Assembly (NCBI GenBank): GCA_013215525.1
Contig: JABSQY010000009.1
Span: 1-42,883, forward strand
Length of the DNA: 42,883 bases
From: Nanoarchaeales archaeon
Lineage (GTDB): Archaea > Nanobdellota > Nanobdellia > Woesearchaeales > UBA583
Reading direction: 5' to 3'
Below the pieces are notes generated by a model that worked only from the letters and a program-made list of their open reading frames with translations, was not told where the DNA came from and did not search any database. The position numbers and the translations under genes were made by a program. Positions 9,474-38,917 of the stretch are shown here, piece by piece; within the stretch, counting starts at the first letter, position 1; each line of letters starts with the position of its first letter.

Positions 9474-9494
9474 GAATATATGACACATATTTCT

Positions 9495-11645
9495 ATGTTT
9501 AAACATTTTACATTAGACAATTTTAATCTACGTGGAAAAATAGTAGGAATAAGATTAGATATAAATTCACCAATTATTAACGGTAAAATAGTATATAATG
9601 AGAGAATCGCAAGAGCTTGTAAAACTCTTCGAGAATTAGTTAAGGCAGGCGCAAAGGTTGTAATTCTAGCTCACCAAGGACGAGCGGGCAAGCCAGATTG
9701 TTTAAGTCTAAAAAATCATCAAGTTTTAATTCAAGGTGAATTAAAGAAAAAAATCAACTTTTCAAAAGATTTATATCATGATAATTTTTCAAAAAGAATA
9801 CCTAAATTAAAAAATGGAGAAGTTTTATTACTTGAAAATTTAAGATTTTTTGATGATGAAACTAATTTAGAAAAAGAAGATAATAAACTAGACAAATTAT
9901 CTGAAATTTTTGATTACTATATATTTGATGCATTTTCAGTTGCACACAGAAAACACAAGTCCGTTGTAGGGATTAAAGGAGTTCCTATTATCTCTGGAAG
10001 AACAATGGAACGTGAGTTACTTCATTTAGATAAACTAGATCATACAAAAAAACCACATACATACATTTTCGGTGGTGCAAAACCTGATGATTTAGTAATT
10101 TTAATTGAAAAATCATTAAAAAATAAATCTGTTGATAAAATTTTATTAACTGGTGTGATTGGAGAGATGGCGCTTATCTGTAAAGGATATAATCTAGGAT
10201 GTAAAATTGATATGTTAAAAACATATAACTATATTGAAAACATTGACAAATTTAAAGAAATATTTTTAAAATATGAAAATAAATTTGAAATTCCAAAAGA
10301 TGTTGCTATTTTTGATGGGAAAACAAGAATTGAAATTCCAGTTGATAAGTTAGATGAAGAAGAAAATAAAAAATTAGTTGAAAAATATTTAATTCAAGAC
10401 ATTGGAACATTAACAATTGATAGTTATGAAAAATCAATTAAACGAGCTGGTTCAATTTATTATAAAGGACCACAAGGAAATTTTGAAGAACCTCATTTTG
10501 AAAAAGGTACAAAACAAATTCTAAAAGCGTTATCACACGCAAAAGGTTTCACATTCATGGGTGGAGGACACTCTGTAACTGCTGCTAACATGTTTAACTT
10601 TTTAAAAAAAATTAATTATGTGTCGCTTGCTGGTGGAGCGTTAGTTCAACATTTATCTGGAATTAATCTTCCAGCATTTCAAACATTAAAAGATTCCTTT
10701 AAAGAGTTCGAGAAGGCGCATTACGATTTCATTGTATTAGGTTCAAACACTGTAGATATCAAAGTAGATATTCCTGAGAAATTATCACAAATTGAAATCG
10801 GTGAAAAAATTAAAGTAAATGAAAACTTTAAACTATCAAATGGTGGTGGTGGAATTAATGTATCAATCGCATTAACTAAACTAAATGCAAATGTTGGATA
10901 CTTAGGAAAAATATCAACAGAATTTCGTGATCTTTTAGATAAAACATTATCAAAAAATAAAATCGGACTAATTGAATCAAAAGAAACTAAACGTGGAGTT
11001 GCAAAATCAATTTTACTTCAAACTAAAGATAAAGATAGAGTAATCTTTACATATCGTGGACAAAACGATTATTTAGAATTAGAAGACTTTGATTATAAAA
11101 AATTAAACTCAAATAACTTTTATTTAACTGCATTAAATGGAAAATCTATGGTGACACAAATTAAATTAATTAAACTAATGAAAAAGAAAAATAAAAATTC
11201 TATGTTTTGTTATAATCCATCAGCATATTTAATTAAAGATGAAGGAAGACATTTAGATAAATTAATTAAACTAATTGATGTATTAGTATTCAATTTTGAT
11301 GAAGCAAAAGAATTAACTGGAGATAGAGATATGTCAAGTTGCCTGCGAAGTGTATACGCTTTAGGTCCAAAACTTATAGTAATTACTGATGGTGCAAATG
11401 GAAGTTATGCGTACGATGGAGAAAAAGAAGTATATCAAAGACCAAAACCTCCAAAAAGAATTGTTGATACAACTGGAGCAGGTGACTGTTTTGCTGCAAC
11501 ATTTTTCTACTTTATAACAAAAAAATATGGTGTTAAAGCATCACTGCAATATGCAAGCTGGAATGCATCTGCTTTGATTACAAAAAATGGTACAAGTAAT
11601 GGACTTTTAACATTTAGTGAATTAGCTAAAACTAAACGAGCGTAA
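9495..11645 (+). CDS. pgk: Fusion protein: phosphoglycerate kinase (N-terminal ~410 aa) + PfkB/ribokinase-family sugar kinase (C-terminal ~305 aa)
   Basis: PGK part: IRLDINSP, VVILAHQGRAGKPD, LLLENLRFF, FDAFSVAHRKH, IFGGAKPDD, MGGGHS, SLAGGAL. PfkB part, from about 10720: VLGSNTVD, NGGGGINVSIALTKLNANV (PfkB signature 1), DTTGAGDCFAATF (signature 2). It is one uninterrupted frame. The start was moved to 9495 on promoter spacing. Confidence 0.85.
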   Translation: MFKHFTLDNFNLRGKIVGIRLDINSPIINGKIVYNERIARACKTLRELVKAGAKVVILAHQGRAGKPDCLSLKNHQVLIQGELKKKINFSKDLYHDNFSKRIPKLKNGEVLLLENLRFFDDETNLEKEDNKLDKLSEIFDYYIFDAFSVAHRKHKSVVGIKGVPIISGRTMERELLHLDKLDHTKKPHTYIFGGAKPDDLVILIEKSLKNKSVDKILLTGVIGEMALICKGYNLGCKIDMLKTYNYIENIDKFKEIFLKYENKFEIPKDVAIFDGKTRIEIPVDKLDEEENKKLVEKYLIQDIGTLTIDSYEKSIKRAGSIYYKGPQGNFEEPHFEKGTKQILKALSHAKGFTFMGGGHSVTAANMFNFLKKINYVSLAGGALVQHLSGINLPAFQTLKDSFKEFEKAHYDFIVLGSNTVDIKVDIPEKLSQIEIGEKIKVNENFKLSNGGGGINVSIALTKLNANVGYLGKISTEFRDLLDKTLSKNKIGLIESKETKRGVAKSILLQTKDKDRVIFTYRGQNDYLELEDFDYKKLNSNNFYLTALNGKSMVTQIKLIKLMKKKNKNSMFCYNPSAYLIKDEGRHLDKLIKLIDVLVFNFDEAKELTGDRDMSSCLRSVYALGPKLIVITDGANGSYAYDGEKEVYQRPKPPKRIVDTTGAGDCFAATFFYFITKKYGVKASLQYASWNASALITKNGTSNGLLTFSELAKTKRA

Positions 11646-13567: not shown

Positions 13568-14200
13568 ATGGTTGATATGAAAATACATAATTTTTATATG
13601 TATTTTACAGTTTTTTTATTCTCTCTAGTTATATTATTGTCTGGAACATTATATTATTTTGAAAATAATCTTAATAAAATTATTATTGAAAATATTGTAA
13701 TTTTAGATACAAATTATGGTGAGATAAAAATTGAATTATTTATTGATAAAAGTCCTATCACAGCAGGTAATTTTAAAATACTTGTTGAAGAAGGTTTTTA
13801 TGATAGAATTAAATTTCATCGAGTAATAGATGGATTTATGATTCAAGGTGGAGATCCAAACTCAATTAACAATATTAATATTGATTCTTGGGGTACTGGA
13901 GATGCAGGTTATGTAATTGAAGACGAATTCATTGAAGGATTATCTAATAAAAAGTGGACACTGTCTATGGCAAACTCTGGACCAAACACTGGTTCAAGTC
14001 AGTTTTTTATTAATCTTCAAGATAATACATTTTTAGATTGGGACAAAGAACCTTCATCTTCAAAACATCCAGTATTTGGAATTGTAATTTCAGGAATGGA
14101 TATTGTTGATTTAATATCAAAAGTTCCAACTGAGGGAAGACCAACAGATAGACCACTTGAACCAGTAATTATTAATACTGCAAGTATGTCATTTGAATAA
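13568..14200 (+). CDS. Cyclophilin-type peptidyl-prolyl isomerase, N-terminal TM anchor
   Basis: SPITAGNFKILVEEGFYD, KFHRVIDGFMIQGGDP, LSMANSGPNTGSSQFFIN, HPVFG. The N-terminal helix is FTVFLFSLVILLSGTLYYF. Confidence 0.9.
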   Translation: MVDMKIHNFYMYFTVFLFSLVILLSGTLYYFENNLNKIIIENIVILDTNYGEIKIELFIDKSPITAGNFKILVEEGFYDRIKFHRVIDGFMIQGGDPNSINNINIDSWGTGDAGYVIEDEFIEGLSNKKWTLSMANSGPNTGSSQFFINLQDNTFLDWDKEPSSSKHPVFGIVISGMDIVDLISKVPTEGRPTDRPLEPVIINTASMSFE

Positions 14201-14292: not shown

Positions 14293-14832
14293 ATGGCAAA
14301 TGATATCGCAGTATTTAAAACAAATATGGGAACTTTCAAAGTTAAACTATACTTAGAAAAAAGTCCAATTACAGCAGGTAATTTTAAACAATTAGTTGAA
14401 TCTGGTTTCTATAATGAGACAAAATTTCACAGAGTAATTACAGATTTTATGATTCAAGGTGGAGATCCTTTATCTAAAAATGATAACTTAAAGAAAAAAT
14501 GGGGGACTGGGGGAGCAGAAAGAATTAAAGATGAATTCATTAGAGGTTTATCAAATGTTCGTGGAAGTTTATCAATGGCAAACTCAGGACCAAATTCAGG
14601 TTCATCACAGTTTTTCATCAACACAGTAAACAATGACTTTTTAGATTGGGACAAAGGAGATCAAAGATCAAAACATCCAGTATTTGGAGAAATTATTGCA
14701 GGTATGGATGTAATTGATAATATCTCAATTGTAAAAGTTGGAAGAAATGATATTCCAGAAAAAAACATTACAATCTCATCAGCTTTTATGGAATCTGCAA
14801 AAAATCCTCCAAAAGAAAAAAAAGCAGCTTAA
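14293..14832 (+). CDS. Cyclophilin-type peptidyl-prolyl isomerase, no signal sequence (cytoplasmic)
   Basis: Same cyclophilin motifs (FHRVITDFMIQGGDP, SMANSGPNSGSSQFFIN, HPVFG). TATA TATTTAAA at 14264..14271 lies 22 nt before the ATG. Confidence 0.9.
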   Translation: MANDIAVFKTNMGTFKVKLYLEKSPITAGNFKQLVESGFYNETKFHRVITDFMIQGGDPLSKNDNLKKKWGTGGAERIKDEFIRGLSNVRGSLSMANSGPNSGSSQFFINTVNNDFLDWDKGDQRSKHPVFGEIIAGMDVIDNISIVKVGRNDIPEKNITISSAFMESAKNPPKEKKAA

Positions 14833-15804: not shown

Positions 15805-16419
15805 ATGAAGAAATTTTCATTAATTTTACTAACTATGTTCGCATTAGTATTTGCGGGATGTAGTAACTCAGGACAAAGCGCAGACACATCATCTGAGACT
15901 GATGTAGCAACTGGTAATCCAATTGCTGTATTCGATACAACAAAAGGAACTTTTAAAATTGAATTATTTGTTGAAGAATCTCCAATTACAGCTGGGAATT
16001 TCAGAGACCTTGTCGCAAGTGGATTTTATGATAATACAAAATTCCATAGAGTAATTAAAAATTTTATGATTCAAGGTGGGGACCCAAATACTAAAGATGA
16101 TAATTTAAAATCTCGTTGGGGAACTGGTGGAAGTGGAACAACAATTGAAGATGAATTTATTGAAGGTTTATCAAATGTTCGTGGAAGTTTATCTATGGCA
16201 AACTCAGGACCAAACTCAGGAAGTAGTCAATTTTTTATTAATGTAAAAGATAACTTAGGATTAGATTGGAATAATAATATGCAACCTAATTCAAAACATC
16301 CAGTATTTGGAAAAATTGTTGAAGGTATGGATATAATTGATGCAATCGTATCAGTTCCAACTGCTGCACGTGATGTACCTGTTGATGCAATCATTATTAC
16401 ATCAGCAACAATTGAATAA
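15805..16419 (+). CDS. Cyclophilin-type peptidyl-prolyl isomerase, lipoprotein form (lipobox VFAGC|S)
   Basis: MKKFSLILLTMFALVFAGCSNSG is followed by a complete cyclophilin domain. Bases 16148..16220 are about 93 percent identical to 14528..14600. Confidence 0.9.
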   Translation: MKKFSLILLTMFALVFAGCSNSGQSADTSSETDVATGNPIAVFDTTKGTFKIELFVEESPITAGNFRDLVASGFYDNTKFHRVIKNFMIQGGDPNTKDDNLKSRWGTGGSGTTIEDEFIEGLSNVRGSLSMANSGPNSGSSQFFINVKDNLGLDWNNNMQPNSKHPVFGKIVEGMDIIDAIVSVPTAARDVPVDAIIITSATIE

Positions 16420-20020: not shown

Positions 20021-20899
20021 ATGAATGAGTTAGAAATTAAATTATTTAAACCGATGGATGAATCAAAAAGAATTCTACTAGATTCAATGGGTTTAGAAAA
20101 TATTTATTATTATACTCTTTACGTACAACCAATTGTGAGTTTACAATATGATTCTCTAATTAAAAAATTTGAGTTTTTATTCAGGGCTTTTGACAAGTTT
20201 GATAAAGTAATTTCTCCACTTGAAATATTTTCAGAAAAAAGAACTCATGAAGATTTAAAAAAATTAGATTTACTTGTATTTGAAAATGCAATGAGTTTAT
20301 TATCTATCAACAAGGATTCCTTATGTGATGCTTATATGGCATCTATTAATGTTTCAGAAGCATCTATTGAGGATTCAAGTGAATATCTTGATAATATTGA
20401 ACAAATTAGAATTGATTATGGTATAGAACCAAAAAATATTTGTTTAGAATTAACTGAAAAAGCATATGATGGGATTGGCGAGTTTACAAATAAATCTTTA
20501 CTTTTAAAGTATTTTTTAGCTGTTGATGATTTTGGGTCTAAACATAGTGCAACTGGATTAGTGTTACATGGTTTATTAAATTCAATTCCAGAAGGTATGG
20601 CTGATCATATAATTGTAAAATTAGATATGTTTTATGTAAAAAATTTAGATAATTCTACAGTAATTTATAGTGATATTATTCGTGGAGTTTATCATACATT
20701 TCTTGGTTTTAAAAAATATAAGGGATTAAAATTAGTTGCAGAGGGTGCTAGAGATTTAGAGTCAACAATGGGACTTAAATCTAATCGTGTTGATTTCGTC
20801 CAATCATTTTTCACAGGGGAACCGATGGAATTTAATGAAAATTATAAACAACCGATTTATTCAAAAAAAGTACCACAATTATCTTTTGATTTTGAATAA
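20021..20899 (+). CDS. Stand-alone EAL-domain protein (putative cyclic-di-GMP phosphodiesterase-like)
   Basis: The ordered EAL motifs are present: YVQPIVSL...FEFLFR (EAL position reads EFL), SINVS, LELTE, VDDFGSKHS, VKLD, VAEGARD, VQSFF.GEP. TATA TTTATAAA at 19989..19996 lies 25 nt before the ATG. Confidence 0.7.
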   Translation: MNELEIKLFKPMDESKRILLDSMGLENIYYYTLYVQPIVSLQYDSLIKKFEFLFRAFDKFDKVISPLEIFSEKRTHEDLKKLDLLVFENAMSLLSINKDSLCDAYMASINVSEASIEDSSEYLDNIEQIRIDYGIEPKNICLELTEKAYDGIGEFTNKSLLLKYFLAVDDFGSKHSATGLVLHGLLNSIPEGMADHIIVKLDMFYVKNLDNSTVIYSDIIRGVYHTFLGFKKYKGLKLVAEGARDLESTMGLKSNRVDFVQSFFTGEPMEFNENYKQPIYSKKVPQLSFDFE

Positions 20900-24796: not shown

Positions 24797-25651
24797 ATGA
24801 TTAAAAAAATTTCTCAATTATTGTTTGTATCTTTATTATTAGTAGCAAGTGGATATTCAGAATCAAACGGTGTTTGGCATGATGCTAAAGACGTGCGAGC
24901 TGGAGTTTTCGGGTCAGATGAAGTTACATCTGGATTTATATTTGAAAATCAATTAACAATTAATTCTTTTTCAAATTTAGTAAATTCTCAATTAAACTTT
25001 AAATCTTTAAACGTAAACTATTGGAGTATTGGAAAAACTGCAACTTCAAATGATTTTATAATAAATAAAGAAGGTTCAACAAACACTTTCACAATTCTAT
25101 CAAACGAAAACATAGGAATTGGAACAAATGCGCCAACAGAAAAACTACATGTAATTGGAAACACAATTTTATTAGAAACAAATACTGATTCAAGTTCATT
25201 TTTAAAACTAAATTCAGGAGCAACAACGTCACAATCATCAGGAATTGAATTACTTGATAGAGGAATTTCAATGTGGACTATTGGAAAAGATTCTTCTAAT
25301 ACATTTAGAATCGATGATAGTTTAGGAAATAATAAATTTTCAATTAATAATTTAGGTAATACTGGATTTGGAATTTTAAACCCTACTGAAAAATTAGACG
25401 TACTAGGAAATATTAAATCTACTGGAACGATTTCATCAGTAACATTAAACACAAACACAATCACATCAGCTAATCCTTTTATTACAATTTCAAAACCAAT
25501 TAATACAAATACAATCTCAAACACTGGAAACATTAATACTGATTCAGTATCAACTACTTCAATTACAACAAATGCAATCACAACAAATGAGATTACAACT
25601 AATATAATTAAATCAAATATTGGACAAAATGTAATTATTCAATTAGGATAA
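24797..25651 (+). CDS. Secreted fibre-like repeat protein
   Basis: Signal peptide LLFVSLLLVASG. The motif NIGIGTNAPTEKLHVIGN recurs as NTGFGILNPTEKLDVLGN; I recall this motif type from phage tail-fibre-like and surface fibre proteins. The C-terminus is T/N/I-rich repeats (TNAITTNEITTNII). Confidence 0.55.
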   Translation: MIKKISQLLFVSLLLVASGYSESNGVWHDAKDVRAGVFGSDEVTSGFIFENQLTINSFSNLVNSQLNFKSLNVNYWSIGKTATSNDFIINKEGSTNTFTILSNENIGIGTNAPTEKLHVIGNTILLETNTDSSSFLKLNSGATTSQSSGIELLDRGISMWTIGKDSSNTFRIDDSLGNNKFSINNLGNTGFGILNPTEKLDVLGNIKSTGTISSVTLNTNTITSANPFITISKPINTNTISNTGNINTDSVSTTSITTNAITTNEITTNIIKSNIGQNVIIQLG

Positions 25652-25712
25652 TTAATTATTTTAATAATCATTAAATAAATAAATCATTAAATAAATCAAT
25701 AAATAAATCAAA

Positions 25713-26237
25713 ATGGAAAATTCAAAAACAGAAAATAATAATTTTGTAGTACTAGGAATAATTTTATTAGTGTTAGTTATATTTTTATTTGTATCTCAAA
25801 CTTCAATATTTAAATTTTCACAAGATGAGACGAACTTATATTCAAGTTCAAAAATTGAAAAAGTTACAGAAAAAATAATTATAAATCCTTGTGAAGGATT
25901 AAGTGGTGAATCTTTAAACTTTTGTGAATTAAAAAATCAAAAATGTGAAACTGATACTTGTTACTTTCAAAAAGCTCAAATTAACAAAGATGAATCAATT
26001 TGTTTTGAAATCAAAGATGAAAATTTACGTGTTGGATGTTCAGTTGTACAAACTGAAACAAAAGTTTTTGTAAATTCAGTTAAAAATAATGACATAACTA
26101 TCTGTAATTCTTTAACAAATAATAGAGTAGATGATTGTCGTGATAATTATTATTTATCACAAAAGTATAACTATGGAAATACTAGTTTATGTAATAGTAT
26201 TAAAAATCAAGAATTATTAACAAGGTGTTTAGAATAA
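25713..26237 (+). CDS. Cys-rich membrane-anchored protein
   Basis: N-terminal TM helix (FVVLGIILLVLVIFLFV) followed by a Cys-rich ectodomain with reiterated C-x-x-I/L-x-(D/N)-x-x-x-x-x-C spacing. The stop is 1 nt before the next ATG. Confidence 0.6.
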   Translation: MENSKTENNNFVVLGIILLVLVIFLFVSQTSIFKFSQDETNLYSSSKIEKVTEKIIINPCEGLSGESLNFCELKNQKCETDTCYFQKAQINKDESICFEIKDENLRVGCSVVQTETKVFVNSVKNNDITICNSLTNNRVDDCRDNYYLSQKYNYGNTSLCNSIKNQELLTRCLE

Positions 26238-26238
26238 A

Positions 26239-28293
26239 ATGATTCAATCTAATTTACTCTCAAAATTCGCAAATTTATTAATTCTAATATTCACTTTATC
26301 TTTAGTATCTCAAATTTCATACGGAGCAGAAATTTGTGGTGTTGAAATAAGTGAACCTTGGTTTCAAGTATTAGATAATTCAGGAAATCCAGTACTTACA
26401 ATTGATAATGAGGGTGATATGTTTATCTTGGGACAAGACCACACACTCAACAACAAAGCAACACAATCAACATTTGAAATAGAATCAATATTTTTTAATT
26501 CTGTAACAAGTAACTATAATTCAATTTCTGATAACTTAGGTTCAATTCCCTCTATCCAAGGATTAGAAATTAAAAATACACTTGGAACAACAACTGCATT
26601 ACTTGGAAAAGATAATACAATCTATTCAAAAGGAAGTGTTGTAGCGCAAGGAGCACAGGCTGCATGTTTACCTGATGGAAATTATTGTCAAAACACAGAC
26701 ATTAGAGAATATAGAAATTATTTTTGTGACGTAACTGGATTAAATACTGGTTCTTGTACATATACATCATCTTCACAATTTAGTTGTTCATCTCAAAATT
26801 ATGACTTTTGTTCTGGGCCAGATAATAAAGATGTATATGAAAAACAATTTACTTGTAGTGGTTCAGGTTGTAGTTCATCAGACGAGTGGCTTAAAACTTG
26901 TCCAAGTAGTTCTACAAGTCTTGGAACTTGGGGATGTTTTGATATAACTACAAAATCAAGAGCAAATATATATTATTCTCCATCATGTTCACTTGGTTCA
27001 TGTGGACTTAGTGATGCAACTGTAACTGAGACTCAAAGCTGCCCAGGTGGACAAGTGTGTGGAGGTGGAAGTTGTAGTCCTGGAGCATCTTGTAGTTTTG
27101 GAATTGCTCATTTAGGAACTGATAGATTATACAAAGATAGTAGTGTACCTTATGGAAGTAGTTGTTCATCTCAAATTAGAAGTTGTTTTGATGGAACTTT
27201 ATCCGGTTCAAATTCATACACTGACACATCTTGTTCTGTACAAGCATGTATTGATTCCTCCTGGGGACCTTCACAATCATCAGTTTGTTCTGGAGAAAGT
27301 TTTACACAAACAAGTAACTGTGGAACTACAAGAACTGTGTCTGGTACAAGTACTAGAGGTGTATGTGCACCATCTCCATCCGCAGATAATTGTGCATATG
27401 GTGTAGGCCATGGAAATTCACAAATATTTTATATATCTACAAGTGTACCATTTAACAGTGTGTGTTACGCACAGATGCGTACATGTGATGATGGGGACTT
27501 ATCGGGAAGTTATACTGCAACATCTTGTAGTGTACAATCTTGTAATTCAAATAGTTGGAGTCCATCCCAAGTAAACACTTGTTCAACTGACACTTTTACA
27601 CAAACAAATGAATGTGGTGATACAAGAACTATATCTGGTACAAAATCTTGCGTTCCAGTAATTAATGGAGTTTGTGGTGGGGCGAGTTGTTCTTGTGGTT
27701 CAGGTAGTTCATCAAGTTGTAAAAGTGAATTTGATAATACTTTTCCAAGAGGATATAATTGGATGTGGAGTTGTTCTGGTTCTGATGGTGGAAGTTCTAT
27801 GTCTTGTAATACTTGGACTGCTTGTTTTACTGGTGATGAATTAGTTAAAACTTTATCTGGTGAAATTGAAATTTCAAAAATTAAAGTTGGTGATATAATA
27901 ATATCTTATGATGAAAAAACTAATACTTTTGTTGAAAATGAAGTTGATCAATTATTAGTTCATGATGGTAATACTAGACCTGTCAATAATTTTGAAAAAG
28001 ATCCAATTTTAGAATTGGTTATTGAAACAAATGGAATTGAAAAAATAACAAAAGTTACAGCAAATCACTTATATCTAGATTTAGAAAATAAAAAATATAA
28101 ACAAATTCGAAAATTTAATATTGGAGATAAATTAACTTCAATAAATGGAGTTGGAATAATTAAATCAATGAATAAATTAGATTTAATTGCTATTGTATAT
28201 AATTTACATATGAAAAATAAACCAAATAATTATTTAGTAAATGGTATTGTTGTCCATAATGAAAAACAATGTCCTGGTGGGGAAATCTGTTAA
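26239..28293 (+). CDS. Secreted, very Cys-rich protein with two ~100-aa tandem repeats and a C-terminal Hint/intein-like domain
   Basis: Signal peptide (LLILIFTLSLVSQISYGA), a Cys/Ser/Gly/Thr-rich body, and a Hint domain at residues 529-674 (see the separate feature). Confidence 0.8.
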   Translation: MIQSNLLSKFANLLILIFTLSLVSQISYGAEICGVEISEPWFQVLDNSGNPVLTIDNEGDMFILGQDHTLNNKATQSTFEIESIFFNSVTSNYNSISDNLGSIPSIQGLEIKNTLGTTTALLGKDNTIYSKGSVVAQGAQAACLPDGNYCQNTDIREYRNYFCDVTGLNTGSCTYTSSSQFSCSSQNYDFCSGPDNKDVYEKQFTCSGSGCSSSDEWLKTCPSSSTSLGTWGCFDITTKSRANIYYSPSCSLGSCGLSDATVTETQSCPGGQVCGGGSCSPGASCSFGIAHLGTDRLYKDSSVPYGSSCSSQIRSCFDGTLSGSNSYTDTSCSVQACIDSSWGPSQSSVCSGESFTQTSNCGTTRTVSGTSTRGVCAPSPSADNCAYGVGHGNSQIFYISTSVPFNSVCYAQMRTCDDGDLSGSYTATSCSVQSCNSNSWSPSQVNTCSTDTFTQTNECGDTRTISGTKSCVPVINGVCGGASCSCGSGSSSSCKSEFDNTFPRGYNWMWSCSGSDGGSSMSCNTWTACFTGDELVKTLSGEIEISKIKVGDIIISYDEKTNTFVENEVDQLLVHDGNTRPVNNFEKDPILELVIETNGIEKITKVTANHLYLDLENKKYKQIRKFNIGDKLTSINGVGIIKSMNKLDLIAIVYNLHMKNKPNNYLVNGIVVHNEKQCPGGEIC
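27091..27660 (+). repeat. Tandem coding duplication, period 300 nt (about 100 aa), Cys-rich module
   Basis: CSFGIAHLGTDRLYKDSSVPYGSSCSSQIRSCFDGTLSGSNSYTDTSCSVQACIDSSWGPSQSSVCSGESFTQTSNCGTTRTVSGT aligns with CAYGVGHGNSQIFYISTSVPFNSVCYAQMRTCDDGDLSGSYTATSCSVQSCNSNSWSPSQVNTCSTDTFTQTNECGDTRTISGT. Confidence 0.85.
27823..28260 (+). other. Hint (Hedgehog/intein) domain, 146 aa, followed by only 10 aa
   Basis: Block A is Cys1 in A|CFTGDELVKT. Block B T-x-x-H is VTANH. Block F is IVYNLHMKNKPNNYLV. Block G is NGIVVHN, and the +1 residue is Glu. The remaining tail is EKQCPGGEIC. Confidence 0.8.
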
Positions 28294-28409: not shown

Positions 28410-30362
28410 TTAAAAATTAAAAAGTTTCTTTTTGATTTTCAAACTACGTACAAAAGAAAACTCACGTAATTTCTTTTCAATAACTTCAACATGATTTCCT
28501 TCTTCTAATGTTAAAGTCATACTTGTATCTCCATTTCTTAATACTTTAGAATTAATAGAATTAATTGATACATTTCTACTTGCAAATAAATTTAAAATAT
28601 CCATAAGTAATCCAATTTTATCAGTTAAAACTAATTCAAAAACAATTTCTTTTGTTTTCATCTCTTTCCACTTTAATCCGATTTTTTCATTAATTGTAAA
28701 CTTTGCATTATCACATTCAACACTATGGACAACAATTTCTTTATCTTTACCTTTTCCTCCAATAACTCCTACAATTTCTTCATTATATTTAAACTCGCAA
28801 CACCCAGCTTTTCTGGACTTTTTAAAATCTGATAAACTTTTAATTTTTAATTTTAAAGTTGAAAATAATTCATCATCGACAGTAATATTTGCCGGTCCAG
28901 ATTTTTTTAAATGTAATGTATTACGAATTTTAATTCTAGCTTTATTTGTAACAACAAACTTTAACCATTTTTCAGAAGGTTTTCCATTCTGATTTGTAAT
29001 AATTTCTACAATATCTCCTGATTTTAAAGATTTATCTAATGTACACATTGCACCATTAACCTTTCCTTTAAGTGCACGTTCTCCAATCTCTGTGTGAACG
29101 CTGTATGCAAAATCTAATACTGTTGCATTTTCTGGTAAAACGATTACATCATTTTTAGGAGTAAATAGAAACATTTCATCTTCAAAAAAATCAAAACGTA
29201 ATAACTTCATAAACTCATCATTATCTTTATGTTCTTTCTCCCAAAGCATAACTTCTCGCAGCCATGCAATCTTTTTCTCAAACTTTTTATCTTCTTTTAA
29301 TGATTTATATCTCCAGTGTGCAGCAACTCCAAATTCAGCCAGTTTGTGCATATCTTCAGTTCTAATTTGAATCTCAACTGGACAATTAATTGCTTTTGAG
29401 AAAATTGTAGTGTGAATTGACTGATAACCATTTAATTTAGGATTTGCAATATAATCTTTTAATCTATCTGGAAATGCTTGGAACTTTTCATGGATATGTC
29501 CAAGTAAAGTATAACAATCAGAAATACTTCCTACAGTAATTCTAATAGCATATAAATCATAAATATCTTCAAAAGTTTTAGCATTATCTTTAATCTTTTT
29601 ATAGATTGAATAAAAATTTTTAGGACGACCTAATACAGTTTTATATGAAAATTTATTAATGTCTAAAACTTTTTTAATTTCATCAACTGCTTTATTTAAA
29701 ACTTCTTCACGATCAGACCTTGTCATATGAACTTTTTCCTTAACAAATTGGTACATATCTGGATTAATGTATTTAAATGATAAATCTTCAAGTTCCCATT
29801 TAATTGAATAAAGTCCAATTTTTTGAGCAATTGGTGCATAAATTAACATAGTTTCTTTTGCAATTCTTTCTTTTTTATCAGGTCTCATAACTCCAAGTGT
29901 ACGCATATTATGTAATCTATCACATAACTTAATAACTAAAATTCTAATATCTTTAGCACTTGCAAGTAAAACTTTACGTAACGCTTCAATTTTTTGATCA
30001 GATTTATTTTTAGCAAACCCATCAATTTTTGTAAGTCCATCAACAATTAATCCAACTTCTTCACCAAATTTTTCTTTAATTTCTCCTGAAGTAATTTCTG
30101 TATCTTCAACAACATCATGTAATAAAGCAGCTAAAATTGAAATAGTATCAAGTCCTAAACTGTGTACCATTGTTGCAACAGCTAGTGGGTGTGAAATGTA
30201 TGGTTCTCCTGTGGCTCTATTTTGTAGCCTGTGCGCCTTTTTAGCATATTCATAAGTAATTCTAATTGTTTTTTTATCAAACTCAGGTTTTATAATTCCA
30301 TAAAATTTTTCAAAATCTAAATCTATATCTTTGATGGTTTTTATTTTATTTTCTTCAGTCAT
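28410..30362 (-). CDS. rel: Long RelA/SpoT homologue: bifunctional (p)ppGpp synthetase/hydrolase (HD - synthetase - TGS - ACT)
   Basis: HD hydrolase motifs: HRLQNRATGEPYISHPLAVA and LLHDVVEDT. Synthetase motifs: RPKNFYSIYKKI, DLYAIRI, DRLKDYIA (RxKD type), GYQSIHT and EIQIRTEDMHKLAEFGVAAHWRYK. TGS region: FTPKNDVIVLPENATVLDFAYSVH. The C-terminus is ACT-like. Confidence 0.9.
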   Translation of the reverse strand: MTEENKIKTIKDIDLDFEKFYGIIKPEFDKKTIRITYEYAKKAHRLQNRATGEPYISHPLAVATMVHSLGLDTISILAALLHDVVEDTEITSGEIKEKFGEEVGLIVDGLTKIDGFAKNKSDQKIEALRKVLLASAKDIRILVIKLCDRLHNMRTLGVMRPDKKERIAKETMLIYAPIAQKIGLYSIKWELEDLSFKYINPDMYQFVKEKVHMTRSDREEVLNKAVDEIKKVLDINKFSYKTVLGRPKNFYSIYKKIKDNAKTFEDIYDLYAIRITVGSISDCYTLLGHIHEKFQAFPDRLKDYIANPKLNGYQSIHTTIFSKAINCPVEIQIRTEDMHKLAEFGVAAHWRYKSLKEDKKFEKKIAWLREVMLWEKEHKDNDEFMKLLRFDFFEDEMFLFTPKNDVIVLPENATVLDFAYSVHTEIGERALKGKVNGAMCTLDKSLKSGDIVEIITNQNGKPSEKWLKFVVTNKARIKIRNTLHLKKSGPANITVDDELFSTLKLKIKSLSDFKKSRKAGCCEFKYNEEIVGVIGGKGKDKEIVVHSVECDNAKFTINEKIGLKWKEMKTKEIVFELVLTDKIGLLMDILNLFASRNVSINSINSKVLRNGDTSMTLTLEEGNHVEVIEKKLREFSFVRSLKIKKKLFNF

Positions 30363-31949: not shown

Positions 31950-32432
31950 ATGAAAAACCAAACAAATGAAATAATATCAAATAACTTATTTATTAAAAAT
32001 ACTTTTATTTTTTCATTTATTTTATTATTAATTGATATAATTACAAAATATATTTTCACAAACAAATTTTTTTTTGAAAATTCATTAATATATATACAAT
32101 ACTCTGAAAACCGTGGTTCTGCATTCTCAATGTTCTCAAACTTTGATTATTATAATTATCTAATTGTAATCTTATCATTATTTGTATTATATTATTTATA
32201 TAAAAATATAACTGAATTTAATATAAATAAAATTACTAGATTCTCTTATTATTTATTAATAGCAGGAATTATTGGAAACTTATTTGATAGAATAATTTTT
32301 GGATATGTTAAAGATTTTATAGGTTTAAAATATTTATTTATATTTAACATTGCTGATGCGTATTTAACTTTTGCTGTGTTGATGTTTATTTATGTAGAAT
32401 TGAGAAATTCTTCATTTCTCTCTGATAAATAA
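31950..32432 (+). CDS. lspA: Lipoprotein signal peptidase (signal peptidase II)
   Basis: Four TM segments. Motifs NRGSAFSMF, AGIIGNLFDRIIFGYVKDFI and FNIADAYLTFAV include both catalytic Asp positions (GN..DR and FN.AD). Confidence 0.8.
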   Translation: MKNQTNEIISNNLFIKNTFIFSFILLLIDIITKYIFTNKFFFENSLIYIQYSENRGSAFSMFSNFDYYNYLIVILSLFVLYYLYKNITEFNINKITRFSYYLLIAGIIGNLFDRIIFGYVKDFIGLKYLFIFNIADAYLTFAVLMFIYVELRNSSFLSDK

Positions 32433-32470: not shown

Positions 32471-35221
32471 ATGAATGATCAAATAGAAGTTATAGGAAAA
32501 ACATCCTCAGTACTAGACTATAACTTGAATGAACAATATTTAAATGTACGTAAAATTATTATTACATCAGATGAAATAATATCTTCTTTTGAAGATGTTG
32601 GCGCGAATGATGTATTTGAAAAACTTTCAAATTCAACAGCTGAAAGTTATTCATCAAATCTTCGTTCAGCAATTGATAGTGGGATTTTAGATTCTACAAT
32701 AACTTCAGAATTATACAAAGAAATTACTGGACTACTTCCAAAAATTTGTGATACAATGATGGACATCCAACTTCAAGGATATAATTTTATGAATTCAGTA
32801 TCAAATTCTAAATTTAATTTAACTCTACGTTGTGAATCTTTTACAATCACAAAGTACTATGAAGAAAGAGGAGGATTTCTTTCTGCAATTAGAAGTTTAA
32901 TTTTAGATTATTTAGAATTTTTTGGAAACGTTAATAGATTAAAAAGATTAAAAGATTTTCAAATAGAAATTTATGAATCTGAGGATATATACAAACACAT
33001 TTTTTTAAAAAAAGATGGTTCAAAATTAATTTTAGCATCAAATTTCGGATTTTCAAAATCAACTCCAATTGATTTTGTAACTGGTTGCGAATTTTATTTT
33101 TCAACAGGGGAAGGATTTAATTTTTTTAGAAACTCTCAAACAAGTGCAATCCTAAGAGAACACAATCATCTAGTTGAAAGTCCAATTCAAACAAGAGATA
33201 AAATTCTTTCAGATAGTGAATTAATTAGTATTAATGATAAAACTAAACATATTTCTGATGCAGTAATTGAATTAGAACTTACAAAAAAAGGAAAATTAAA
33301 AATATTAAATGTGTCCGTTCTTGAAAACACAATAACAAATGGAACTGATAATGGATTTTTCATAAATAAATCAACTAAAAATTATAATAGAATTTCTTTA
33401 ATCACAATCAGAGATGATTTAACTGAGGAAATGCCAAATCCAAAATATTTATTATTAAGAAATCCAAATGAAATTAAAAATTTTCTAAAAGACCCATTAT
33501 GTTTAAAACATATTGATGGACTTGTTTTTACAGAAAACTTTTATTTACCTATTTTGGATTCCTTTGGAGAATCAAATGATATTGATATTATTTATCATAA
33601 AACTGAATTAAACAAATCATTAGATATAGAATTAAATAGAACAGAAGTATTAATTGGAACTAAAACAAATAGAGTTAATTTAAATCCATTTAATAATATT
33701 ATTGACGAAAAAAATAAAAAGAGAGATTTAAATTTAGAAAGATTAAATCAAGCAGACTTATCAACACCACAACACGTAATAGAGCAAACAAGAATGGAAC
33801 ACCAATCAGTAAATCAAATAACAGAAAGCTTAATTTCAAGTCCAAATTCATCAATGAATTCAAGCGCAAGTCCATATGGAACATCAATGCCAAGAAGTGA
33901 ACCTGGTAAAAAATTATCAGCAATTGACATGTTAATGCATGCGGCAGAAAGTAAATTATCAGCGCCACAACCAGGACAAGTAGCAGCTCCAGTTGCAGCA
34001 GCTGCCGTAGCATCGCAAGCTCCAGTATATGCGCCAGTCCCTGTACCTTTACCAAGAAGTGAACCTGGTAAAAAATTATCAGCAATTGATATGTTAATGC
34101 ACGCGGCAGAAAACAAGCCTGTAGCACCACCTCAACCAGTAGCACCTCCTCAACCTGTAACTCCACCAGTCGAGCAATTTCAACCAGAACCAGTAGTACA
34201 AACATACTCTGAACCTGTTCAAACATACAATGCGCCAGAACCTACACAATCAACTCAAACTGCTCAAGAAGAAACTGGGATGGTTGACCATTTTGCAATG
34301 TACGAAGAATCAGCAGAACAAACAACAACACAGCAACCTGAATATGTAAGTACTGAACAAAACGTACACAATGAAGTATTAAATCGTGAAATGGTTGAAG
34401 ATGTTGCTGATGAAATGATTGTTGATACCTTTCAAGCATCTAAACCTTCCTTTCAAGAGAATTCATATAATCAAGAACAACAAGTTGAACAACATATTGG
34501 GCAACCAATTAATCAAAATTATAATAATCAAATTCCACAAGAATTAGAAGAAGATTTATCTGAAATTGAACATGAAATGGAAGAAGTTGACACATTTGAA
34601 GAAGAAGAATTAACTCAACTACATCAAATTGAACAAACTAATAATCAATACTCTCAAACAAGCGAGACAGTACAAACGCAAACACAAACTCAAGCGCTAC
34701 CACAAGTTGACATTGAAAGATATAATGATATAATCTCAACTAAATTAATTACATTACCAAACATTGAATCTTCTGCATACTTTGTAGACTCAAGTAATGT
34801 TGCAGATATTACAACACAAGCAGAATTATTTTATCTAACTCCAACAGATGAAGATTTAGAGAATGATGGATTAAGTTATATTATTCCGATGGGAGTATCT
34901 GAAACTTATTCAGACAAACACAACTACATTGTAAATTCAGCAAATGATTACTTTTTATTAGAAAAAGAACAAAAATTAAATTTATTTATTAATTTATCAT
35001 ACATTGATGAATCAATTAAAGAAAACTTTTTAGAAAAATGTTTAGGACATTGTAACTCTGCATATATTGTATGTTTAAAACAAGACTTAGCATTAATTGA
35101 AAAATATATAAATAAAATAACTGGTATCTTTGTAAAAGATTTAATTGACAAAGATGATTTATATCAAACTGAAACTACAGTTTTAAGTTATGAGAAGAAG
35201 TATCTTATGAAAACATTTTAA
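32471..35221 (+). CDS. Large hypothetical cytoplasmic protein with a central disordered A/P/Q/E-rich region carrying a duplicated 20-aa motif
   Basis: No TM segment or signal peptide. TATA TTTAAAAA at 32442..32449 lies 22 nt before the ATG. The N-terminal ~300 aa only weakly resemble a PEP-utilising/ATP-grasp-type fold (very tentative). The central part is low-complexity. Confidence 0.7.
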   Translation: MNDQIEVIGKTSSVLDYNLNEQYLNVRKIIITSDEIISSFEDVGANDVFEKLSNSTAESYSSNLRSAIDSGILDSTITSELYKEITGLLPKICDTMMDIQLQGYNFMNSVSNSKFNLTLRCESFTITKYYEERGGFLSAIRSLILDYLEFFGNVNRLKRLKDFQIEIYESEDIYKHIFLKKDGSKLILASNFGFSKSTPIDFVTGCEFYFSTGEGFNFFRNSQTSAILREHNHLVESPIQTRDKILSDSELISINDKTKHISDAVIELELTKKGKLKILNVSVLENTITNGTDNGFFINKSTKNYNRISLITIRDDLTEEMPNPKYLLLRNPNEIKNFLKDPLCLKHIDGLVFTENFYLPILDSFGESNDIDIIYHKTELNKSLDIELNRTEVLIGTKTNRVNLNPFNNIIDEKNKKRDLNLERLNQADLSTPQHVIEQTRMEHQSVNQITESLISSPNSSMNSSASPYGTSMPRSEPGKKLSAIDMLMHAAESKLSAPQPGQVAAPVAAAAVASQAPVYAPVPVPLPRSEPGKKLSAIDMLMHAAENKPVAPPQPVAPPQPVTPPVEQFQPEPVVQTYSEPVQTYNAPEPTQSTQTAQEETGMVDHFAMYEESAEQTTTQQPEYVSTEQNVHNEVLNREMVEDVADEMIVDTFQASKPSFQENSYNQEQQVEQHIGQPINQNYNNQIPQELEEDLSEIEHEMEEVDTFEEEELTQLHQIEQTNNQYSQTSETVQTQTQTQALPQVDIERYNDIISTKLITLPNIESSAYFVDSSNVADITTQAELFYLTPTDEDLENDGLSYIIPMGVSETYSDKHNYIVNSANDYFLLEKEQKLNLFINLSYIDESIKENFLEKCLGHCNSAYIVCLKQDLALIEKYINKITGIFVKDLIDKDDLYQTETTVLSYEKKYLMKTF
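33890..34112 (+). repeat. 61-nt near-perfect direct repeat (33890..33950 and 34052..34112, 2 mismatches) inside the CDS
   Basis: Both copies encode PRSEPGKKLSAIDMLMHAAE and lie 54 codons apart. They are followed by VAPPQPVAPPQPVTPP. Confidence 0.9.
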
Positions 35222-36724: not shown

Positions 36725-38917
36725 TTATTGATTTGTAAATCTAGGATATACTGAATGGATTTTAACTGAATTCATCTGTTGACTTGATTTTTGTAAATTC
36801 TCAAATGTTGTAGGTAATGTATACTCTACAAAACTAATTTCTAAATTATTTGAATTTAATAATTCAATTGTTGAAATACTAAACTCTCCAAGTTCATATC
36901 CTCCTTTTAACCATGCTGAAAGATTTGTTTGTGGAATAATTTCACAATCTTCTCCTCCAAATAATCCAGTTTCAAAGCAAACTTCGTCTTCTGGAATTAC
37001 AATTTTATTTTTATACATTACAAGTCCAGATATTTTATATCTTCCAGGAATTAAATTAATTGTTTGATTGTCTTGATTATAATAATCAACATTTACAACA
37101 TTTATAATATTTTCATCATCTAAATTTTCAAAAATCATAAATCCTTCATCAAACTCTTTTAAAAAACGAAGTGCTCCAAAATCTACACTATTTGGTGTTC
37201 GAAACCCAATAGTTAATTTAATTTCTTTACCTGAACTCATCTCCCTTTCTCCTAAATCAATAGGTTCATCAATTTTTGGATTTAAATTATTAATAATAAT
37301 TTTTTGATGTCCAAACTTTGAAATCTCTAAAGTTCCAGGATTACAATTAAGAGGTAATCTAAATCTTAACTTAGTTGTTGTATCACGTAAATCTTCGCTA
37401 ACAGAACTATCTCCACCAAGACTTGTTTGAGCAATAAAACATTCACTAATCTCTTTACAAGTAAACATCACAGTAGCATCTTCAACACCGCTTTGTGGCG
37501 AGTTTGCATCACGTAATCCATACTTTATTGAATCAATCAAATCAATTGATACAACTTGTGATACAAATTGTGATGGGTCGCAAATTAAACTCTTTTTAGG
37601 TTTTGGTAATTCTTCATCAAAACTTGAAGTTGTAAGAACGTAATTATTTTTAAGAGGTTTGTTATGTTTAATGTTTATCTCGATTGGTAAATTAAAAACA
37701 AAATTATCATTCTCTTCATCTGATTTAATTTCAAAAATAATTGGTGCAGCAATCTCATAACTTGCTTTGTATTTTGTATAATAAATTGGTAAAAACCCTG
37801 CAAACATTTCAGGATTTGGTAATAAAATTGTATCTCCTATTGCTTGTTTAATTCTAAAAAAGATTGGATAAAAAGGTTCAAACGTTGGTGTAACTTTTAA
37901 ATCTTTAAACTGTTTAAATAATTTTGAATTAGTTTCATCTAAATCTGTATTCTCTGAAATATAATCGTTAGTGTATAAACTATTTGTAGCTTGTACAAAT
38001 TCACTGTTTCTTAACTCTTCTGGGATTACTCTTTCAACTACATTTGTATTTAAAAATTGTACTCTTGAAACTTCTGAACTTAAAATTTCTTTTAAAGTTT
38101 TTTCAACATCGTCCATATACCAAACATCGAAATCATATTTAAAATTTGTTTGAGATTGTGGTGGAAGTAAACTACGAGAATTTGAATCTTGATATGGTCT
38201 TAAAATATTCATAACTCTTGTATCCATAAAAGAAGAATTAATTTCAGCTTTGATAATTTCTTTAGCTAAATGATAAGGTACATATAACTTATTATCTACT
38301 TTAATTCTAAAATCAGAAATATAATTAACTTCATCTGTTACAACATTTTCAATCTCTAAATTTAATCTTAAATCAACAATAATTTCTCTATCTAAAAAAA
38401 TAACTCGTGTTTCAATTTCATCTACATCATAATTAACATTATATATGTCTTTAAAATTATTAAATCCATCAAAACAATTTATCTCCATATTTTCATCTAA
38501 ATATCTTTTAACTTGGGACTTTAAAGAATAGTCAGAATCTGAGTCGTACTCAGGAATATATGTTTTAAAAATTTCATCTGAATCATCATAATAATACCAA
38601 TATGGCATTTTATTTTTTTCTAAAAAATCAAAACCTTCAGCATATTTATTTAATTCTTTATGATTGTCACGACTTACATACGACATAGGTTTTGGATATA
38701 ACCATCCTGCCTGAGCACCTAACATCGACACAGCTGATTTAGTTTCAAGAATTAAACAACTCTCAACAAACTCTTTTACATTATTTGTATTTTTTTCATC
38801 AGAAAAAATAGGTATGTCTGTAAAACTAGTTGATACTAAAAAAACAAATCCTACAACTAATATAACTCCAATAACAACAAAAATCCCAATTTGACCTTTT
38901 ACTCTATTAATATTCAT
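36725..38917 (-). CDS. Large (730 aa) extracellular protein with type IV pilin-like (class III) signal peptide
   Basis: The N-terminus MNINRVKGQIGIFVVIGVILVVGFVFLV has the K-G-Q cleavage motif and hydrophobic stretch of archaeal prepilin-like proteins. A minus-strand TATA (TTTATAAG, plus-strand coordinates 38939..38946) lies 22 nt before the ATG. Confidence 0.7.
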   Translation of the reverse strand: MNINRVKGQIGIFVVIGVILVVGFVFLVSTSFTDIPIFSDEKNTNNVKEFVESCLILETKSAVSMLGAQAGWLYPKPMSYVSRDNHKELNKYAEGFDFLEKNKMPYWYYYDDSDEIFKTYIPEYDSDSDYSLKSQVKRYLDENMEINCFDGFNNFKDIYNVNYDVDEIETRVIFLDREIIVDLRLNLEIENVVTDEVNYISDFRIKVDNKLYVPYHLAKEIIKAEINSSFMDTRVMNILRPYQDSNSRSLLPPQSQTNFKYDFDVWYMDDVEKTLKEILSSEVSRVQFLNTNVVERVIPEELRNSEFVQATNSLYTNDYISENTDLDETNSKLFKQFKDLKVTPTFEPFYPIFFRIKQAIGDTILLPNPEMFAGFLPIYYTKYKASYEIAAPIIFEIKSDEENDNFVFNLPIEINIKHNKPLKNNYVLTTSSFDEELPKPKKSLICDPSQFVSQVVSIDLIDSIKYGLRDANSPQSGVEDATVMFTCKEISECFIAQTSLGGDSSVSEDLRDTTTKLRFRLPLNCNPGTLEISKFGHQKIIINNLNPKIDEPIDLGEREMSSGKEIKLTIGFRTPNSVDFGALRFLKEFDEGFMIFENLDDENIINVVNVDYYNQDNQTINLIPGRYKISGLVMYKNKIVIPEDEVCFETGLFGGEDCEIIPQTNLSAWLKGGYELGEFSISTIELLNSNNLEISFVEYTLPTTFENLQKSSQQMNSVKIHSVYPRFTNQ

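Follow-up and report, generated by a model that had tools for sequence, protein, structure and literature searches.

We analyzed the 42,883-nt contig JABSQY010000009.1 of a Nanoarchaeales archaeon (hereafter, the window), which contains an open reading frame (ORF) on the forward strand, at 26239..28293 from start codon to TAA stop, that encodes a secreted, very Cys-rich protein of 684 amino acids (P0001). The last quarter of this ORF (codons 529-674) is a genuine Hint domain. A first-pass annotation, made from the letters of the DNA alone, had placed such a domain at 27823-28260, and when we reread the ORF, these coordinates and all of the quoted Hint motifs were correct, as were the Glu at the first position after the domain (+1) and the 10-residue tail that it opens, EKQCPGGEIC, which is followed by TAA. 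The description of the host protein as secreted and Cys-rich was also borne out, since a signal peptide can be inferred from its sequence and it contains many Cys. The archaeal host was confirmed as well: the window, with a GC content of 26%, encodes aRF1 (381 bits) and TYW1 (336 bits), both above the NCBIfam cut-offs, together with a tRNA-splicing endonuclease, L7Ae, and archaellin. The features of the locus are collected in Table 1.

Table 1. Features of the host gene, its Hint domain, and the adjoining upstream gene. In one-letter motifs, a hyphen marks the edge of the Hint domain or of the signal peptide. BIL, bacterial intein-like; Hint A, the type of Hint domain found in the window; TM, transmembrane; aa, amino acids.
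Feature	Residues	Nucleotides	Strand	Basis or remark
Hint/BIL-type autoprocessing domain, 146 aa, no endonuclease insert	529-674	27823..28260	+	motifs, profiles, predicted structure
Cys529 (TGT), position-1 nucleophile, block A, A-CFTGDELVKT	529	27823..27825	+	kept in all Hint-A relatives
Block B, VTANH: T607-A-N-H610 (TxxH)	607-610	28057..28068	+	T92 and H95 invariant in alignments A3, A4, and A5
Blocks F and G, IVYNLHMKNKPNNYLVNGIVVHN to His673-Asn674 (CAT AAT)		28192..28260	+	Y139, N140, H158, and N159 invariant or nearly so (A4, A5)
His575 in VHDG motif	575	27961..27963	+	invariant column H60, 26-sequence alignment A4
C-terminal tail EKQCPGGEIC (+1 Glu675, +2 Lys676) and TAA		28261..28293	+	10 aa after Asn674
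Signal peptide, predicted Sec	1-29	26239..26325	+	MIQSNLLSKFANLLILIFTLSLVSQISYG-AE (..SQISYG-AE); read from sequence; homologues with the same N-terminal layout
N-terminal cargo domain, beta-rich, conserved	30-138	26326..26652	+	AlphaFold model
Cys-rich repeat stalk	139-469	26653..27645	+	repeat matches to ~90 proteins
Pre-Hint linker, Cys-rich, opens the variable cassette	470-528	27646..27822	+	ends ..FPRGYNWMWSCSGSDGGSSMSCNTWTA; identity to L001 lost abruptly at 27646
Upstream co-oriented gene, 174 aa, TM segment and Cys-rich region		25713..26237	+	stop 1 nt before host start codon

The host ORF contains both the quoted string IVYNLHMKNKPNNYLV and the terminal NGIVVHN; its block F reads VYNL. 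Throughout, architectures were counted in the top 139 representative proteins and residues over 153-182 Hint copies; these sequences are related, and the counts carry no correction for kinship. Position 1 is Cys in 137 of the 153 Hint copies that could be aligned. Cys1, TxxH, and the terminal His-Asn (HN) are all kept in a 60%-identical syntenic orthologue (P0099), in Gracilibacteria homologues with 55-59% identity, and across 139-182 representative copies, such that the catalytic Cys and Asn, on which the first-pass annotation had staked its assignment, are conserved in orthologues and more distant relatives alike, which points to selection on the catalytic residues. His575, an additional His, belongs to none of the classical intein blocks, and a second type of Hint domain, Hint B, described below, lacks it.

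When the domain was searched alone, hmmscan matched mainly Hint-clan Pfam families, plus weak PDZ matches. The best Pfam match was Hint (PF01079; E = 1e-5, 25.7 bits versus a gathering threshold of 29.7). PT-HINT (PF07591) matched with E = 1.4e-3 and 19.4 bits (cut-off 27.7), covering positions 1-136 of 137, Hint_2 (PF13403) with E = 2.7e-3 and 18.5 bits (cut-off 28.4), and Intein_splicing (PF14890) with E = 0.033 and 14.4 bits (cut-off 35.8). The NCBIfam model intein_Cterm passed marginally over residues 653-674 (15.8 bits, cut-off 15.6). A sequence search of the PDB gave marginal matches only, to two solved BIL domains, BUBL BIL2 of Tetrahymena and 2lwy of Clostridium thermocellum. For 2lwy, used as a stand-in for a BIL-specific profile, the phmmer E-value was 0.11.

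We also built an AlphaFold2 model of the Hint domain from a five-sequence alignment and compared it with the PDB using Foldseek. This comparison returned 55 matches at E ≤ 1e-3, and all 50 of the 50 listed were BIL, intein, or Hedgehog Hint domains. BUBL BIL2 ranked first (8e-9), followed by 2lwy (6e-8, TM-score 0.83), mini-inteins, and Hedgehog 1at0 (1.4e-4). We conclude that the domain is a real Hint fold and that BILs are its nearest neighbours in the Hint superfamily. This result agrees with the earlier assignment to a non-canonical Hint domain of BIL or Hog type: the domain has neither a +1 nucleophile nor an endonuclease, its host is a variable secreted protein, and the structures that match it best are those of BILs.

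We scanned 1.84 billion cluster representatives exhaustively with phmmer; 726 of them were related to the domain at E ≤ 1e-3, and 127 passed E ≤ 1e-10. Cys1 and the terminal His-Asn are kept in almost all representative relatives. Among GTDB genomes, the nearest relatives were from Gracilibacteria (57-59% identity, with a 24-aa tail); the others came from Peribacteria, Moraniibacteriota, two Woesearchaeota, and one unclassified bacterium. A relative was also present in an archaeal contig of 29% GC. With these archaeal relatives, a DPANN affiliation of the window is plausible. With the family pattern we retrieved a true RecA intein (L015, 26% identity), while viral contigs yielded distant Hints only, with 23-49% identity over the best local segment and 23-31% for whole-domain matches. 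Many relatives consist of little beyond a TM anchor, a Gly-rich linker, and the Hint domain. No toxin family was recognized when the long segments that follow the domain (C-exteins) in relatives were searched for toxin domains. The Hint domain of the window belongs to a large clade shared by ultra-small, symbiotic bacteria and archaea, namely bacteria of the candidate phyla radiation (CPR) and DPANN-like archaea. One protein of a Candidatus Woesearchaeota metagenome-assembled genome (L011, 2488-4437) has a TM segment followed by three tandem C-terminal Hint domains, with the junctions HN-KDGSC-CF.. and HN-KDESGC-CF.. and the protein end HN-DGGDSGGGK.

A word-based search for close homologues of the Hint domain gave three only, P0096, P0097, and P0098 (55-56% identity; loci L002-L006), which are annotated as proteins of 139-151 aa, one of them under the name "intein/homing endonuclease." All in-frame stops of their contigs, the terminal ones included, are TGA, and reading TGA as Gly (code 25) matches the Gly columns of the alignment at these loci. 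Under code 25, the three are internal parts of long Cys-rich ORFs, which rules out that they are small stand-alone Hint proteins. These ORFs come from Gracilibacteria-like bacteria. Once recoded, they consist of a Cys-rich N-terminal part, a linker (..YPRGCYYDW.C.G.NGG...C.KT.G-CF..), the Hint domain, and the junction HN-EKAE(A/S)C..C.GASC, after which a further ~120-130 Cys-rich residues lead to a TAA stop. Taken at face value, the miscalled fragments would give a wrong picture of the architecture.

What follows the terminal Asn varies in length across the clade. The residues after the last Hint domain number 1-3 in 24 proteins, 4-10 in 34, 11-30 in 33, and more in 48 (n = 139), and the tail is only 1-10 residues long in 58 of the 139. 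None of the 139 stops at the Asn itself, as at least one residue always follows. Over 177 copies, the +1 residue is Lys in 68, Ser in 9, Thr in 6, and Cys in none. Lys is present at +1 or +2 in 117 of 182 copies, although the Lys content of the domains predicts only ~14.5%, a difference to be read with the relatedness of the sequences in mind, and 47 of 49 distinct short tails contain Lys, as counted by eye. The invariable presence of a residue after the Asn and the strong preference for Lys beside it suggest that the C-terminal reaction matters in this clade.

We considered the possibility that short tails are artefacts of TGA recoding. For the window and ten loci (L001, L007-L014, and L016), we read the gene ends from the DNA, and all were TAA or TAG, which rules out this explanation at these sites. 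The tails in the ten loci are 1-9 aa long in eight and 24 aa long in two Gracilibacteria loci. In relatives with Hint A, the HN-EK junction is conserved and continues as EKAE(A/S)C..C.. into a Cys-rich C-extein of 24 to ~340 aa. To judge from its sequence, the tail of the window protein is probably the truncated start of such a longer C-extein. The layout that the first-pass annotation described, in which a cargo is followed by a Hint domain and a short tail, is therefore true of the window but represents one allele, since relatives have the longer C-extein or a second Hint domain.

Comparison with two other loci revealed how the C-terminal end of the host gene varies. L001, which encodes P0002, is ~99.5% identical to the window at the DNA level over 25520-27645; at 27646, 59 codons before Cys529, the match breaks off sharply. 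The C terminus of P0002 is a different Hint domain (Hint B), with Ser at position 1 (RT-SFIAGTKI), VTSAH, and the end LVHN-K-TAA-TAA. The 3′ breakpoint of this cassette swap was not located, as L001 ends 79 nt past its stop codon in an AT-rich stretch without a match. A word-based search with the P0002 cassette gave no matches; its relatives turned up among the representative hits instead. The second locus, L016, is syntenic with the window: the convergent RelA/SpoT gene is 84% identical and the next gene 59% identical. Its orthologue of the host protein, P0099, carries both domains, Hint A and then Hint B. Hint A and the linker of P0099 are 60% identical to residues 471-676 of the window protein and run into HN-EKASIDTSLCGG; a Cys-rich segment of ~200 residues follows, and then a Hint B that ends YLVHN-K-stop. 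Another full-length homologue, P0101, has the same N-terminal domain, Hint A, and a 102-aa Cys-rich C-extein. Thus, the locus has three alleles, with Hint A in the window, Hint B in a near-identical strain, and both in a syntenic relative.

The composition of the domain fits long residence in this lineage. GC content at third codon positions (GC3) is 4% in the Hint domain, as extreme as in the host, and because it is host-like, we regard the domain as a long-term resident. Nucleotide identity is 76% for Hint A between the window and L016 and 73% for Hint B between L001 and L016. As both Hints are old in the lineage, the window and L001 differ by allelic loss or exchange of modules and not by a recent import. 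Recent horizontal transfer from Gracilibacteria, the nearest named relatives at only 57-59% identity to the Hint domain, was ruled out by the GC3 of 4% and by the archaeal orthologue at 60% amino acid and 76% nucleotide identity. Using a family hidden Markov model and tblastn on six-frame ORFs, we found no second Hint domain or orphan cassette in the window. Upstream of the breakpoint, at 27336-27381, the window and L001 differ by eight mismatches in 46 nt within the otherwise near-identical 2.1 kb. This cluster falls in a repeated "..TRT(V/I)SGT..GVCAPS.." module and could reflect gene conversion between internal repeats.

With regard to the rest of the host protein, AlphaFold modelled residues 4-23 of the signal peptide as a helix, and from the sequence we infer that the protein is exported. 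Over residues 31-130, the predicted local distance difference test (pLDDT) score of the N-terminal cargo domain has a mean of ~84 (66-92 when averaged in blocks of 10 residues), and the domain is common to at least eight metagenomic proteins (P0004, P0009, P0016, P0021, P0027, P0031, P0041, and P0101). A structural search of the PDB with the model of this domain gave no match at E ≤ 1e-3, and nothing was found in Pfam or NCBIfam. Since the N-terminal domain has no structural or family match, the label "adhesin" that the first-pass annotation attached to the cargo is unsupported; its suggestion of tethering to a host surface is likewise speculative. The pre-Hint linker travels with the Hint domain, as the two are conserved jointly in L002-L009 and P0099. 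Of 95 full-length relatives of the host protein, all but 3 lack a Hint domain, and we therefore consider it an accessory module.

Immediately upstream, the 174-aa gene has no Pfam match. Further upstream, 24797-25651 (+) encodes a secreted protein of 284 aa whose repeats of "GIGT..PTEKL.V.GN" recall tail-fibre-like proteins, also without a Pfam match. Both genes are kept beside the host gene in L001, where the 174-aa gene is likewise upstream. The convergent neighbour at 28410-30362 (-) encodes a long-form RelA/SpoT protein with HD, synthetase, TGS, and ACT domains. Together with the genes for a lipoprotein signal peptidase II at 31950-32432 (+) and an EAL-domain protein at 20021-20899 (+), it is a bacterial-type gene in an archaeal genome, and all three were presumably acquired. 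At 9480-11645 (+), a 721-aa fusion joins a phosphoglycerate-kinase-like N-terminal half (11-406) to a PfkB/ribokinase-type sugar kinase (415-716). Three paralogues of cyclophilin-type peptidyl-prolyl isomerases lie within 3 kb (13568-14200, 14293-14832, and 15805-16419, all +); in two of the three, the cyclophilin match starts only at residue 43-44, and the N-terminal stretch is unmatched. Large ORFs of 654-916 aa with no or marginal family matches at 568-2832, 6731-8695, and 32471-35221 (+) and at 36725-38917 (-) are possibly further surface proteins.

Among known systems, the window domain most resembles type-A BILs (Amitai et al. 2003; Dassa et al. 2004). Shared features are a Hint fold of ~140-150 aa without an endonuclease, Cys1, TxxH, a C-terminal His-Asn, a non-nucleophilic +1 residue, and residence in the variable region of a secreted, non-housekeeping protein. 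All sequence-level features of type-A BILs are thus present here, except the bacterial host of the original definition. The differences are the archaeal host, although the nearest relatives are Gracilibacteria, and the mere 10 residues after the domain. Signatures that set the clade apart from type-A BILs are the His of VHDG, YNL, and Lys at +1 or +2. Sequence similarity to the BIL 2lwy is marginal (E of 0.11). The best match both by structure and by PDB sequence is BIL2 of BUBL1 from Tetrahymena thermophila (PDB 6tmm and 6y75), at ~20% identity. BUBL BIL2 uses its thioester to form an isopeptide bond to Lys without ATP (PMC8616854). However, BUBL1 BIL2 is eukaryotic, cytoplasmic, and flanked by ubiquitin-like domains, and the window protein has no ubiquitin-like cargo.

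Other Hint systems share less with the window protein. The pretoxin-HINT family (PF07591) belongs to polymorphic toxin systems (Zhang et al. 2012, PMC3482391). As in these systems, the Hint domain of the window lies in a Sec-exported, recombining protein with a polymorphic C terminus, the profile match is nearly full-length, and the cassette swap between the window and L001 resembles the exchange of toxin cassettes. Unlike in pretoxin-HINT proteins, no toxin domain was recognized past the Hint, either in the window protein or in its relatives, and the downstream side, which begins with the convergent RelA/SpoT gene, contains no immunity-like gene. With Hedgehog/Hog proteins (PF01079; 1at0) the window protein shares a cargo followed by a near-C-terminal Hint domain and a predicted N-S acyl shift at Cys. 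Hedgehog has a sterol-recognition region after the Hint and no terminal His-Asn, whereas the window Hint has an HN that is invariant in its clade and only 10 further residues. Because no region resembling the sterol-recognition region is present, the likeness to Hedgehog that the first-pass annotation drew holds for the first chemical step but goes no further. Canonical mini-inteins (such as Ssp DnaB and Npu DnaB) share the fold and blocks A, B, F, and G; the window domain differs from them in lacking Cys, Ser, or Thr at +1, in a host that is not a conserved housekeeping protein, and in the Asn at position 4 of block F.

The model that we favor, and hold to be probable, is that residues 529-674 are a type-A BIL-like Hint autoprocessing domain that removes itself, mainly by cleavage, and that sits in a recombining C-terminal cassette; the AT-rich archaeon would export the Cys-rich protein by the Sec route, to its surface or out of the cell. 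The steps of this model follow from the established chemistry of the family (PMC4031507, PMC7664689). After export and folding, Cys529, assisted by Thr607 and His610, would attack the carbonyl of Ala528 in an N-S acyl shift to give a thioester. Asn674 would cyclize to a succinimide with the assistance of His673, clipping off the 10-aa tail, and the thioester would be resolved mainly by water. The net product would be a mature cargo of ~500 aa without the Hint domain. As the +1 residue is Glu, no branched intermediate would form, and a minor fraction of the cargo could perhaps be ligated to the freed amine of the tail. The first-pass annotation had held protein splicing to be excluded. This was too strong, since type-A BILs, with His-Asn at their C-terminal end and no nucleophile at +1, are capable of low-yield splicing, in which Asn cyclization frees the amine of the C-terminal fragment and this amine attacks the thioester (PMC4031507). 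Cleavage products dominate in the BILs that have been characterized (PMC4031507, PMC7664689).

Several points weigh against this model. Although the profile searches that the first-pass annotation had called for did match Hint-clan families, and intein_Cterm passed, every Pfam Hint-clan score is under its gathering threshold. Confidence in the AlphaFold2 model of the Hint domain is moderate (pLDDT 67; pTM, the predicted TM-score, 0.63). In many canonical inteins, two positions assist catalysis, the usual Asp at position 4 of block F and the block-F His. In the window domain, position 4 is Asn (VYNL), and in the Hint-A subgroup the block-F His is replaced by Asn (PNNY, compared with PHNY in many relatives). 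Rates and outcomes could therefore differ from those of characterized BILs. Cys529 must also stay reduced in a protein that otherwise appears rich in disulfides. Lastly, the terminal position of the domain could be due to recent truncation of a longer allele, in which case the tail is perhaps functionless.

This last point can be taken further, to a domain that is inactive or without function, a decaying remnant either of an arrangement of stalk, Hint A, Cys-rich segment, and Hint B or of a pretoxin-HINT protein with its effector. The L016 allele and P0101 have long C-exteins past the same HN-EK junction, the tail of the window protein resembles the first residues of such a C-extein, and the change of the block-F His to Asn would fit decay. 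However, the ORF is intact, the primary catalytic residues are all kept, GC3 is fully host-like, terminal Hints with tails of 1-10 aa are common, and the C-exteins of relatives gave no sign of a toxin domain; we consider decay improbable. We rejected the specific case of a pretoxin-HINT protein that has lost its toxin, as the search of these C-exteins recognized no toxin family and neither an orphan cassette nor an immunity-like neighbour is present. The reading as a canonical mobile intein that splices two exteins draws on the weak matches to models of intein N and C termini and on the RecA intein L015, which is detectable at 26% identity. Given the Glu at +1, the absence of a homing endonuclease, the 10-aa C-extein, the non-conserved secreted host, and the absence of Cys at +1 in all 177 clade copies, this reading was rejected and is effectively excluded.

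Two further alternatives keep the first step of the favored model and differ in what resolves the thioester. If an external nucleophile did so, as in Hedgehog and BUBL, the cargo would become covalently tethered to it; candidates are a lipid head-group amine, an envelope component, Lys of another protein, and a molecule of the host surface. Once the signal peptide is cleaved, the sequence offers no other recognizable anchor, and ligation has precedents in BUBL BIL2, the best structural match, which needs no ATP to attach its N-extein to Lys residues on other proteins (PMC8616854), and in Hedgehog, which adds a lipid via the same first step (PMC7664689). The concentration of the clade in CPR and DPANN lineages also speaks for such a use. 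We nonetheless think it rather unlikely, as only 10 residues after the Hint leave no adduct-recognition region, a partner gene is not evident, the many relatives that consist of TM anchor, Gly-rich linker, and Hint have no obvious cargo to tether, and a Hedgehog-type reaction does not need the strict retention of HN and a tail. Alternatively, once Asn674 cyclizes or at the same time, the α-amine of Glu675 or the ε-amine of Lys676 could attack the thioester, such that the Hint is excised as a self-removing export or folding module and the cargo is joined to the short tail. In type-A BILs, splicing proceeds through attack by an amine (PMC4031507), BUBL BIL2 makes an isopeptide bond to Lys, and the Lys enrichment at +1/+2 and in nearly all short tails and the absence of proteins that stop at Asn are as would be expected. 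However, cleavage dominates in characterized BILs, joining one to ten residues has no obvious benefit, and the Lys enrichment, which comes from phylogenetically non-independent counts, could be catalytic, electrostatic, or due to kinship. We regard tail ligation as unlikely.

Bacteria and eukaryotes are well-known hosts of BIL and Hint autoprocessing domains. In our literature search, which was incomplete, also with regard to archaeal polymorphic toxins, we found no description of a Hint or BIL domain on archaeal surface proteins or in CPR bacteria or DPANN archaea. The statement of the first-pass annotation that such a protein had not been described is thus not contradicted by the literature searched, but the architecture is no rarity, because it recurs often in public sequence data of CPR and DPANN organisms. 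The chemistry is known in kind; what is new is the range of hosts, the high frequency of terminal copies, the rule of Lys in the tail, and the locus with three alleles. At their thresholds, the present Pfam models do not detect this clade.

If active, the domain would extend the surface biology of organisms that spend their lives attached to other cells by a post-translational step of maturation or ligation. It would also give protein engineering compact domains that are naturally of the Cys1/HN type and have non-nucleophilic flanks. A bolder proposal, to which we give a low probability, is that the Hint clade of CPR and DPANN organisms is an ATP-independent system for protein ligation at the cell surface, in which an exported polypeptide carried as a thioester may be passed to an amine of a tail Lys, a lipid, an envelope polymer, or a host-cell protein. 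This proposal draws on the conserved Cys1 and His-Asn, the presence of at least one residue past the Asn, the Lys at +1 or +2, and the frequent placement of the domains at the extreme end of exported proteins or in tandem. If true, it would mean that surface proteins of episymbionts are tethered or cross-linked in a sortase-like or Hedgehog-like manner.

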